NCBI GenBank assembly: GCA_964494135.1
Contig: CAZBQN010000005.1
Coordinates: forward strand, 934 to 64,933
Length of the DNA: 64,000 nucleotides
Direction of reading: 5' to 3'
DNA from: an uncultured Ruminococcus sp.
GTDB lineage: Bacteria > Bacillota > Clostridia > Oscillospirales > CAG-272
Part shown: in pieces, positions 23,510 to 38,817 of the stretch
Layout: each line of letters begins with the position of its first letter
Numbering within the stretch: the first letter of the stretch is position 1
Program-made: the position numbers and the translations under genes
The notes under the pieces: generated by a model
Seen by the model: the letters and a program-made list of their open reading frames with translations, nothing else
The model's database searches: none
What the model was told of the DNA's origin: nothing

Positions 23510-23593
23510 TAAACAAAAATAAAAGCGGACAATCGGCACCGACAAAAACGAACGTATCATCTACGCCCGTCAAATCGGAAGACGCCATTGCCC
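23510..23593 (-). promoter_or_regulatory. ANTAR-type hairpin plus terminator in the purC leader
   Basis: GGC-AATGGC-GTC (23592-23581). GGGCAATGGC can instead pair with GCCGATTGTCC (23537-23527), which is followed by GCTTTTATTTTTG. Confidence 0.75.
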
Positions 23594-23603
23594 TCACGCG
23601 ATT

Positions 23604-23632
23604 ATTATACACGCGCGGAGCTTGTTTGTCAA
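23604..23632 (-). promoter_or_regulatory. sigma-A promoter of the purC operon
   Basis: TTGACA-N17-TATAAT. Confidence 0.9.
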
Positions 23633-29410: not shown

Positions 29411-29457
29411 AAAAACGGCGCCTCTCCTGCTTAATCCGCAAGAAAGACGCCTTTGCC
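29411..29457 (-). promoter_or_regulatory. Second ANTAR-type hairpin plus terminator in the GSIII leader
   Basis: AAGGC-AAAGGC-GTCTT. GGCGTCTTTCTTGC pairs with GCAGGAGAGGCGCC, followed by GTTTTT. Confidence 0.8.
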
Positions 29458-29523
29458 TTTTCTTCTATTTATTAATTAAATGCACTGCAAAGATAAATTG
29501 ACACAAAAGACTGCCACAAGTGT

Positions 29524-29581
29524 GAAAATCAGAAAGGGCAAGGGACTTTTTGGATTTACCAATCTAAGACGCCCTTGCCTT
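29524..29581 (-). promoter_or_regulatory. First ANTAR-type hairpin plus terminator in the GSIII leader
   Basis: AAGGC-AAGGGC-GTCTT. GGCAAGGG pairs with CCCTTGCC, followed by CTTTCTGATTTT. Confidence 0.75.
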
Positions 29582-29591
29582 TACGCGACTC

Positions 29592-29620
29592 ATTATACAC
29601 CCCGAAAAACCGTTTGTCAA
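29592..29620 (-). promoter_or_regulatory. sigma-A promoter of glnN-amtB-asnB
   Basis: TTGACA-N17-TATAAT. Confidence 0.9.
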
Positions 29621-29710: not shown

Positions 29711-29722
29711 GCTTGCATATAT

Positions 29723-29786
29723 GAGCAAAGGCGTTCATAGATAGCGGCGACTGCCGTTTTTTCGTGAGCCTTTGCTCTTTTCGTTT
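29723..29786 (+). promoter_or_regulatory. ANTAR-type hairpin plus terminator in the GOGAT leader
   Basis: GAGC-AAAGGC-GTTC. GAGCAAAGGC pairs perfectly with GCCTTTGCTC (29768-29777), followed by TTTTCGTTT. Confidence 0.8.
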
Positions 29787-36233: not shown

Positions 36234-36818
36234 TTGAGCTTGCAAGAGCATGTTTACAGCGTGATGATAGTTTCCGCCTCGGAAGCCTTCAATTCCGCAT
36301 TGACCCCATTGCTTCCCGACTTCAAATTCACACCCGTCCGCATAGAAACCAGCGTTAATTCGGCAAAACGCACCCTGGCTGACCACCCATACGATTTTAT
36401 AGTAATCAATTCTCCCCTGCCCGACGACACGGGTGTCCGCTTTGCCATTGACGTTTCGGGGCTGAAAAGCTCGGTGGCGCTTCTCATGGTGCGCTCGGAT
36501 ATATACGCCGCCACCCAGAACAAGGTTGCCGAGCACGGCGTCTACGTACTGCCGAAGCCCACGTCAAAGCCCATTATAACCCAGGCGATAGACTGGATGA
36601 CAGCCACACTGGAAAGGCTCAAAAAGTTTCAGAAGAAAACAATGTCCACCGAGGAGAAAATGGAGGAGATACGTATCGTCAACCGTGCAAAGTGGGTATT
36701 GATAGACAGGCTGAAAATGACCGAGCAGGAGGCGCACCGCCATATTGAAAAGCAGGCGATGGACAGATGCACCTCAAAGCGCGAGGTCGCAGAAGAGATA
36801 ATAAAAATCTACACATAA
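36234..36818 (+). CDS. Pseudo-receiver + ANTAR RNA-binding antiterminator (NitR/AmiR-like)
   Basis: TTG start, RBS GAAAGGAGG. Receiver-like DFIVINSPLP. ANTAR motif IVNRAKWVLI...TEQEAHRHIEKQAMDR. Confidence 0.9.
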   Translation: MSLQEHVYSVMIVSASEAFNSALTPLLPDFKFTPVRIETSVNSAKRTLADHPYDFIVINSPLPDDTGVRFAIDVSGLKSSVALLMVRSDIYAATQNKVAEHGVYVLPKPTSKPIITQAIDWMTATLERLKKFQKKTMSTEEKMEEIRIVNRAKWVLIDRLKMTEQEAHRHIEKQAMDRCTSKREVAEEIIKIYT

Positions 36819-38714: not shown

Positions 38715-38817
38715 CCGAGCAACGCGAGGATTTCATCCGCCTGCGGCGGATTTCACACGTCTATGACGTATTTCACCCGAGCATATCGAGGATTTCATGT
38801 TCCGGGGGCTGCTTCAC
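38715..38817. repeat. Array of short hairpin + ATTTCA units (REP-like)
   Basis: ATTTCA at 38730, 38750, 38770 and 38792. Each is preceded by a small inverted repeat (for example CCGCC-TGC-GGCGG and ACGTC-TAT-GACGT). Confidence 0.7.

Follow-up and report, generated by a model that had tools for sequence, protein, structure and literature searches.

In many anaerobes, the main nitrogen switch acting after transcription initiation is antitermination by ANTAR-domain proteins, and the rules that describe its RNA targets come from few dual-hairpin models. In the 64,000-nt stretch of DNA of an uncultured Ruminococcus sp. analysed here, further referred to as the window, the leader of the glnN operon contains two ANTAR-type hairpins, each of which is associated with a terminator of its own, and this raises the question of how such hairpins are read and what is gained by their doubling. 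We consider it probable that they represent two independent protein-dependent attenuators in series, both read by a NitR-like ANTAR protein encoded 7 kb away.

Organization of the glnN operon leader

The leader lies on the minus strand and comprises a promoter and two hairpin/terminator modules in series, designated E1 and E2. The elements of the leader and the genes of the operon are, in the order of transcription:

29620-29592, minus strand: glnN operon promoter of the sigma-70 type (TTGACA, 17-nt spacer, TATAAT; 12 of 12 matches)
29581-29566, minus strand: E1 antiterminator hairpin AAGGC[AAGGGC]GUCUU (5 bp, hexaloop with A1 and G4, calculated -3.6 kcal/mol)
29579-29525, minus strand: E1 terminator (8-bp stem with 6 G-C pairs; -18.6 kcal/mol)
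29460-29443, minus strand: E2 antiterminator hairpin AAAGGC[AAAGGC]GUCUUU (6 bp, hexaloop with A1 and G4, calculated -4.2 kcal/mol)
29451-29411, minus strand: E2 terminator (14-bp stem at 29451-29417 with 8 G-C pairs and a 7-nt loop, followed by GUUUUU at 29416-29411)
29378-29373, minus strand: ribosome-binding site AAGGAG
29364-27268, minus strand: glnN, type III glutamine synthetase (GSIII), 698 aa, first gene of the operon
27163-25421, minus strand: ammonium transporter-P-II fusion, 580 aa, second gene
25395-23770, minus strand: glutamine-dependent asparagine synthetase, 541 aa, third gene

The divergent, rightward operon encodes a split archaeal-type glutamate synthase (GOGAT), a GSI-type protein, and a 194-aa ANTAR-domain protein.

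From start to start, the distance between the cores of the two hairpins is 122 nt, and the 106-nt linker between the hairpins contains a terminator. The E1 terminator is transcribed about 60 nt ahead of E2. Counted from the promoter, E1 begins about 10 nt into the transcript, and no promoter site passed in a scan of the region between E1 and E2. Thus, each of the two sensor elements has its own terminator with a U-tract, and both stand under one promoter, upstream of the first gene. The initial annotation of this locus had placed both motifs in this leader, about 120 nt apart, each of them sequestered in its own terminator, the second being a 14-bp stem followed by GTTTTT. The sequences, coordinates, and spacing were all confirmed, and the hairpin and the terminator were found to overlap by 8 nt in E1 and by 9 nt in E2.

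Mutually exclusive structures of E1 and E2

The loops of both hairpins, AAGGGC and AAAGGC, conform to the rule for ANTAR targets (a loop of six nucleotides, the first being A and the fourth G), and in both modules the formation of the hairpin and of the intrinsic terminator is mutually exclusive. The E1 core (29579-29568) is GGCAAGGGCGTC and the E2 core (29457-29446) is GGCAAAGGCGTC, while the stretches that can be compared with the site of GnfR, an ANTAR regulator of Geobacter sulfurreducens, are GGCAAGGGCG and GGCAAAGGCG, respectively. As in targets of the GnfR type, the core GGCAANGGCG is placed ahead of a terminator, with which it overlaps, in the leader of nitrogen genes. With model R1, the E1 hairpin scored 26.4 bits and the E2 hairpin, the top match, 27.1 bits. 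Matches to this model below about 17 bits were, as inspected, not attenuator modules: two in locus L035 (13765 and 3828) are inside open reading frames, those in locus L042 (4591/4675) have no hairpin-terminator layout, and one in the window (29944), discarded by its position, is within the first GOGAT open reading frame on the opposite strand.

The terminators use different halves of the hairpins. In E1 the 5' strand of the terminator is made of the 5' stem half and the loop of the hairpin (three stem and five loop bases; 5'-type): GGCAAGGG (29579-29572) pairs with CCCUUGCC (29544-29537). The stem, which can be extended by AAA/UUU across one bulge, encloses a 27-nt part with two small helices, and because of the length of this part a simple terminator scanner missed E1. 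The E1 fold was better than all 200 dinucleotide shuffles (z = -3.1). Its U-rich tail, CUUUCUGAUUUU at 29536-29525, is interrupted in this genome, and therefore E1 may terminate less efficiently than E2. The presence of strong U-tracts after E1 in most relatives supports the view that E1 is a real terminator. In E2 the terminator draws the first 9 nt of its 5' strand from the 3' stem half of the hairpin and the three loop bases that precede it (3'-type). The calculated energy of the E2 terminator is -24.2 kcal/mol, and that of a 66-nt piece comprising it -26.7 kcal/mol (z = -5.3 versus dinucleotide shuffles). The weakness of the hairpins (-3.6 and -4.2 kcal/mol) compared with the terminators (-18.6 and -24.2 kcal/mol) predicts that the leader is off by default, with termination at both sites unless a factor holds the hairpins.

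Occurrence of the hairpins in GSIII leaders

A comparison with 40 genomes of relatives, 12 of which contain an ANTAR gene, mostly on the same contig as a GSIII gene, links the hairpins with the presence of this gene. A hairpin was found in a GSIII leader of 10 of the 12 ANTAR-positive relatives and in none of 19 ANTAR-negative ones (p = 1.5e-6; this and the following p-values overstate independence, as the leaders are related and some have probably been transferred horizontally). None of these 19 genomes has a hairpin-plus-terminator module in a GSIII leader. One relative of the same genus (G002), the GSIII of which is 80% identical to that of the window, has neither the ANTAR gene nor the hairpin.

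The survey was widened by 80 GSIII loci from public genomes, mostly metagenome-assembled genomes (MAGs) of rumen and gut Clostridia. Among the 110 leaders in total, 47 contain hairpins: 33 have one and 14 have two (16 when one mismatch is allowed). The numbers expected from mononucleotide shuffles are 1.3 leaders with one hairpin and 0.005 with two, and reversed sequences gave none. The pattern is far beyond chance. It is also seen when occurrences are not selected on pairing, which makes the test non-circular: the loop word C-AAnGnn-G is flanked by at least three further pairs in 61 of its 99 occurrences in leaders versus 21 of 498 within coding sequences. A loose pattern, RRGCAANGRSGTYY, searched for in 41 relatives, matched as many times as in the reversed control and was uninformative.

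The stems of the hairpins covary (AAGGC/GUCUU, GCGAC/GUCGU, ACAGC/GCUGU, UGGAC/GUUCA). In an alignment of 15 sequences chosen by eye, changes on both sides were found in four of the six pairs and 91% of cells were paired; none of 500 shuffles reached the observed covariation score. All 15 aligned hairpins have the closing C-G pair, and in 11 of them it is followed by a G.U pair. A U-tailed terminator, called in its lowest-energy version, overlaps 58 of 61 hairpins, in 33 cases through the 5' half and in 25 through the 3' half, versus 45 of 214 random windows of the same leaders.

Proteins 77-81% identical to the GSIII of the window are encoded in MAGs labelled Lachnospiraceae, Oscillospiraceae, and Christensenella. 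Those of 70-81% identity occur also in MAGs labelled Alistipes, Bifidobacteriaceae, and Spirochaetales (loci L044-L123 and L002-L043). This wide taxonomic spread suggests either a transfer of the whole divergent cluster or binning errors. In contigs from pig and sheep gut, depth increases 3- to 6-fold exactly over three hairpins (29442-29464, 29561-29602, and 29714-29747), because hairpin 18-22-mers are shared by many unrelated contigs; the module is thus common in those communities. A search for the locus in public runs gave matches in DNA gut metagenomes and in no RNA run.

A scan of the leader with Rfam at gathering thresholds gave no family match. At permissive thresholds the freshwater-2 family was matched with 23.9 bits versus the cut-off of 49.9; this match rests largely on the ribosome-binding site and was rejected. 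Elsewhere in the window, downstream of an ornithine/DAP decarboxylase-like gene, a match to the Gut-1 RNA was found (38725-38800, minus strand; 53 bits, cut-off 50).

Single and doubled modules

Single modules of the same kind precede two other operons of the window, consistently with the initial annotation, which had ascribed single checkpoints to the operons other than that of glnN:

29720-29785, plus strand: leader of the GOGAT/GSI-like/ANTAR operon, single module with the hairpin UAUGAGC[AAAGGC]GUUCAUA
23595-23514, minus strand: leader of the purC operon, single module with the hairpin GAGGGC[AAUGGC]GUCUUC, a long-range terminator, and the tail GCUUUUAUUUUU

The terminator of the GOGAT leader is a 10-bp long-range stem (29723-29732 with 29767-29776) followed by the tail UUUUCGUUU. 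Inside it there is a nested terminator-like hairpin, AGCGGC-GACU-GCCGUU followed by UUUU (29743-29758, plus strand), which does not overlap the ANTAR-type hairpin and hence would escape the regulator if it terminated by itself. A similar nested 9-bp hairpin followed by UUUU is present in the purC leader. The purC-purA-purB-guaA... operon has its own TTGACA-17-TATAAT promoter, which together with the module lies at 23514-23632 (minus strand), and the presence of the module in its leader apparently ties nucleotide synthesis to the same nitrogen switch. The sequence TCGCGT directly before the hairpin is common to the glnN and purC leaders. The second GSIII of the genome (G000:C1:142955-145099, plus strand; 64% identical over the first 200 residues) is apparently monocistronic and has a sigma-70-like promoter and a short leader with neither a hairpin nor a terminator. 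The genome thus encodes one ungated and one presumably ANTAR-gated GSIII.

The tandem layout is present in 14-16 of the 47 hairpin-bearing GSIII leaders, many of them of gut and rumen Clostridia. A cultured carrier is Claveliimonas monacensis DSM 108991 (locus L093). Of the 14 tandem leaders scored strictly in other genomes, 13 have a U-tailed terminator overlapping each hairpin. All 16 tandem leaders follow a common plan: a promoter, E1 at the 5' end of the transcript, a terminator with a U-tract, a spacer, E2, a second terminator with a U-tract, and a ribosome-binding site. In each of the 16, TTGACA...TATAAT lies 7-14 nt upstream of the first hairpin, and the distance between the hairpins varies from 55 to 180 nt. 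Strong U-tracts follow E1 in most relatives, including one of the same genus (G009). While the divergent GOGAT leaders of 22 loci contain one module each, none of the 22 contains two, and the difference in doubling between GSIII and GOGAT leaders corresponds to p = 0.003 for the strict count and 0.0014 for the relaxed one. Doubling is specific to the inducible GSIII operon. In raw counts, an amt gene is located downstream of 7 of 11 tandem leaders and of 9 of 27 single ones.

Within a genome, E1 and E2 have stems of the same class, with locus L110 as an exception, while between clades the class differs (AAGGC/GUCUU, GCGAC/GUCGU, CGGC/GUCG). In the same genomes the stem of the GOGAT hairpin is of another kind, which indicates that the stem is not dictated by the regulator. 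The concordance of E1 and E2 stems is best accounted for by local duplications of the module that occurred repeatedly, or by gene conversion between its copies, and the distribution of stem classes among clades may reflect at least three independent duplications.

Certain other features of the hairpins were observed. Across taxa the stems are operon-specific: glnN is preceded by AAGGC/GUCUU and the GOGAT operon by AUGAGC/GUUCAU. Among 16 E2 hairpins, 9 have U as the third loop base (AAUG..), versus 2 of 16 E1 hairpins and few single modules; either common descent within the closest clade or a difference in function between the two modules may underlie this. In the second modules of loci L050 (-66) and L105 (-84), which are close to the ribosome-binding site, the terminator hairpin is intact and the U-tail is poor (CUGUCACUUU and UUUCGCUU); these modules may be decaying or shifting to translational control.

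The putative regulator

The presumed reader of E1 and E2 is encoded in the same gene cluster:

36234-36818, plus strand: ANTAR-domain gene, NitR-like, 194 aa, matching PF03861, 7 kb from E1/E2

It is the only ANTAR gene in the genome (1.77 Mb, 82% complete). The assignment of both hairpins to the ANTAR class is partly supported, by their match to the GnfR site, by the co-occurrence with an ANTAR gene among relatives, and by the location of this single gene in the same cluster. The receiver-like domain of the protein is below the Pfam cut-off. It contains Asn in the position of the phospho-acceptor Asp of Rv1626, and SAS where an acidic pair is expected. These features indicate an AmiR-like pseudo-receiver, and the sequence is not that of a regulator activated, like GnfR, through phosphorylation by a partner kinase. 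The input of the protein is probably a protein partner or a ligand. The protein aligns with Rv1626 and AmiR through their coiled-coil region.

Proposed mode of action and alternative explanations

Results of our analysis allow us to propose the following course of events. Transcription would start at a strong, apparently constitutive promoter, and in each module the nascent RNA would first form the weak 5-6 bp hexaloop hairpin. This hairpin would then be displaced by a downstream strand, with the completion of the far more stable intrinsic terminator, so that by default short leader RNAs would be produced, with ends near 29525-29536 or near 29411. We infer that nitrogen limitation is the signal: under such conditions the active ANTAR protein would clamp the hairpin, recognizing the AAnGGC loop with the closing C-G and G.U pairs. 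The clamp would withhold 8-9 nt from the 5' strand of the terminator, and the polymerase would read on. As two such rescues would be needed to reach glnN-amt/P-II-asnB, read-through should approximate the product of two probabilities, which would lower the leak in nitrogen excess and make the response steeper. It is plausible that in this way doubling makes induction tighter and more switch-like, which is the role that the initial annotation had proposed for it. Indirect support for this role comes from the occurrence of doubling in GSIII leaders (14-16 of 47) as against none of the 22 divergent GOGAT leaders.

The two modules need not act independently. E1, at about +10 of the transcript, could serve as a landing pad which recruits a dimeric ANTAR protein, the free second RNA-binding domain of which then captures E2, so that the modules are coupled and the two terminators cut the leak at the cost of one recruitment event. 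ANTAR proteins are known to bind RNA as dimers at two sites (PMC3369931). The protein described here aligns through the Rv1626/AmiR coiled-coil region, E1 is always at the extreme 5' end of the transcript, and in this genome E1 has the weaker U-tail, all of which would fit such a relay. However, in most relatives E1 has a full terminator with a strong U-tract, the spacing of hairpins is variable (55 to 180 nt), and single modules suffice in the GOGAT and purC leaders and at GnfR sites; hence, we find a coupling of this kind rather unlikely. A broader proposal, in which stacked single-hairpin ANTAR attenuators have evolved repeatedly and specifically in glnN leaders, with the dimer relayed from E1 to E2, is likewise unlikely in our opinion, if a little less so. 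If it were true, the two terminators of the leader would suppress the leak multiplicatively for one binding event, in a kinetic variation on tandem riboswitches in which the reader is a protein.

It could also be considered that a single module works in this genome, with E2 as the true control element and E1 either a duplicate in decay or a 5' structure that stabilizes the RNA. This would be in line with the interrupted U-tail of E1, with the 27-nt branched insert enclosed by its stem, and with the fact that about two thirds of the hairpin-bearing GSIII leaders have just one hairpin. Strain variants argue against it. DNA contigs of near relatives, obtained from gut metagenomes of pig and sheep, diverge from the window at about 7-9% of positions in the leader, yet carry no change in the E1 hairpin or in either strand of its terminator. 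In these strains no hairpin or terminator stem is disrupted, and the changes are located in the spacer, terminator loops, and tails. The single change within a stem (C-G to U-G at 29438) keeps the pairing, and a change at 29565 adds a sixth pair to E1. Additionally, G009 and other relatives keep the E1 terminator with a strong U-tract, and the E1 fold in the window beats all 200 shuffles. A lone functional module is therefore very unlikely here.

Two further explanations fit the data poorly, and we assign little probability to either. According to the first, E1 and E2 would be halves of one stretched dual-hairpin site which one dimer must bind at once, as the characterized ANTAR targets need two hexaloop hairpins (PMC3369931) and both loops have A1 and G4. 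Stem-loops 5-12 nt apart, which are canonical for such targets, are not found here. Each module has one hairpin, with no second A1/G4 hexaloop hairpin beside E1 or E2 (inner hairpins have 5- and 7-nt loops), and the start of E1 about 10 nt after the -10 box leaves too little upstream space for one. The E1 terminator is made about 60 nt before E2, and hence the fate of E1 is decided alone; the linker is 106 nt long and has a terminator inside, whereas EutV induction is lost at linkers of 3 or 14 nt; and leaders with a single hairpin are the majority. According to the second explanation, the hairpins would be read by a factor other than ANTAR, or would be unregulated parts of two constitutive terminators acting as pause or processing sites. 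The searched literature contains no binding experiment for this protein family in Clostridia and the leader matches no Rfam family, but among relatives the hairpins occur only in genomes with an ANTAR gene, their loop is identical to that of the GnfR site and is conserved while the stems covary, and two unregulated strong terminators would silence the operon.

Significance of the doubled module

This locus, together with about 45 relatives, indicates that the nitrogen branch of ANTAR control uses a module with one hairpin, either half of which can take part in the terminator stem. Doubling of this module is seen at the high-affinity, ATP-costly ammonium operon (GSIII, Amt/P-II, AsnB) and not at the adjacent operon of GOGAT. 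If the response is sharpened in this way, doubling would be a simple and portable route to a tight protein-controlled switch, and it would explain how gut and rumen Clostridia silence a second, expensive glutamine synthetase pathway when ammonia is plentiful.

Comparison with known systems

The control of glutamine synthetase, P-II, and ammonium transporter genes by ANTAR proteins has already been published (PMC3369931, PMC2995071). The system most similar to E1 and E2 is that of GnfR, the site consensus of which, CAGGCAANGGCGCC, overlaps terminators before nifH, glnK, and amtB (PMC2995071). GnfR bound RNA with CAGGCAAGGGCGCC and did not bind RNA lacking it, and termination was also shown experimentally (PMC2995071, Ueki and Lovley 2010). 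What is common is a single GGC[AANGGC]GYC hairpin that overlaps an intrinsic terminator in leaders of nitrogen-assimilation genes, and the loop and closing pair of E1 and E2 match those of the GnfR sites. GnfR is a phosphorylatable response regulator with the kinase GnfK, and Geobacter has one site per gene (PMC2995071); in contrast, the regulator described here has Asn at the phospho-acceptor position, the leader contains two complete modules, and its terminators involve the 5' half of the hairpin in one module and the 3' half in the other (5'-type and 3'-type).

The targets of EutV, NasR, and AmiR comprise two hexaloop hairpins 5-12 nt apart, of which the second alone overlaps a terminator (PMC3369931, Ramesh et al. 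2012), and a change of the EutV linker to 3 or 14 nt abolishes induction (PMC3369931). ANTAR regulons with many predicted sites have also been described, such as that of Desulfotomaculum acetoxidans with 13 sites in six transcription units (PMC3369931). The hairpins of the glnN leader resemble these targets in their A1/G4 hexaloops, the conserved closing pairs, the mutual exclusion of hairpin and terminator, and the strong link with nitrogen metabolism. They differ in that there is one hairpin per terminator, and in that the hairpins are 122 nt apart, each with a terminator of its own.

In solventogenic clostridia, the ANTAR protein NitR, encoded beside a glnA-type gene (glnA-nitR), is thought to control GS/GOGAT genes by antitermination (cited in PMC4676874). 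The likeness consists in the location of an ANTAR gene next to a glnA-type gene in Clostridia, and the searched texts contain no mention of tandem modules before a GSIII operon. More generally, neither the occurrence of two complete single-hairpin modules within one leader nor a preference of such modules for the GSIII operon is described in the part of the literature that was searched.

Complete sensor-plus-terminator units in series are a feature of tandem riboswitches and T-boxes, e.g., the tandem TPP riboswitches of Bacillus anthracis and the triple T-box of B. subtilis thrZ, where such an arrangement leads to multiplicative read-through and a more digital response. The glnN leader is similar to them in the presence of at least two complete units per leader. 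However, riboswitches and T-boxes sense a metabolite or tRNA directly, while the units of the glnN leader would be read by a trans-acting protein.
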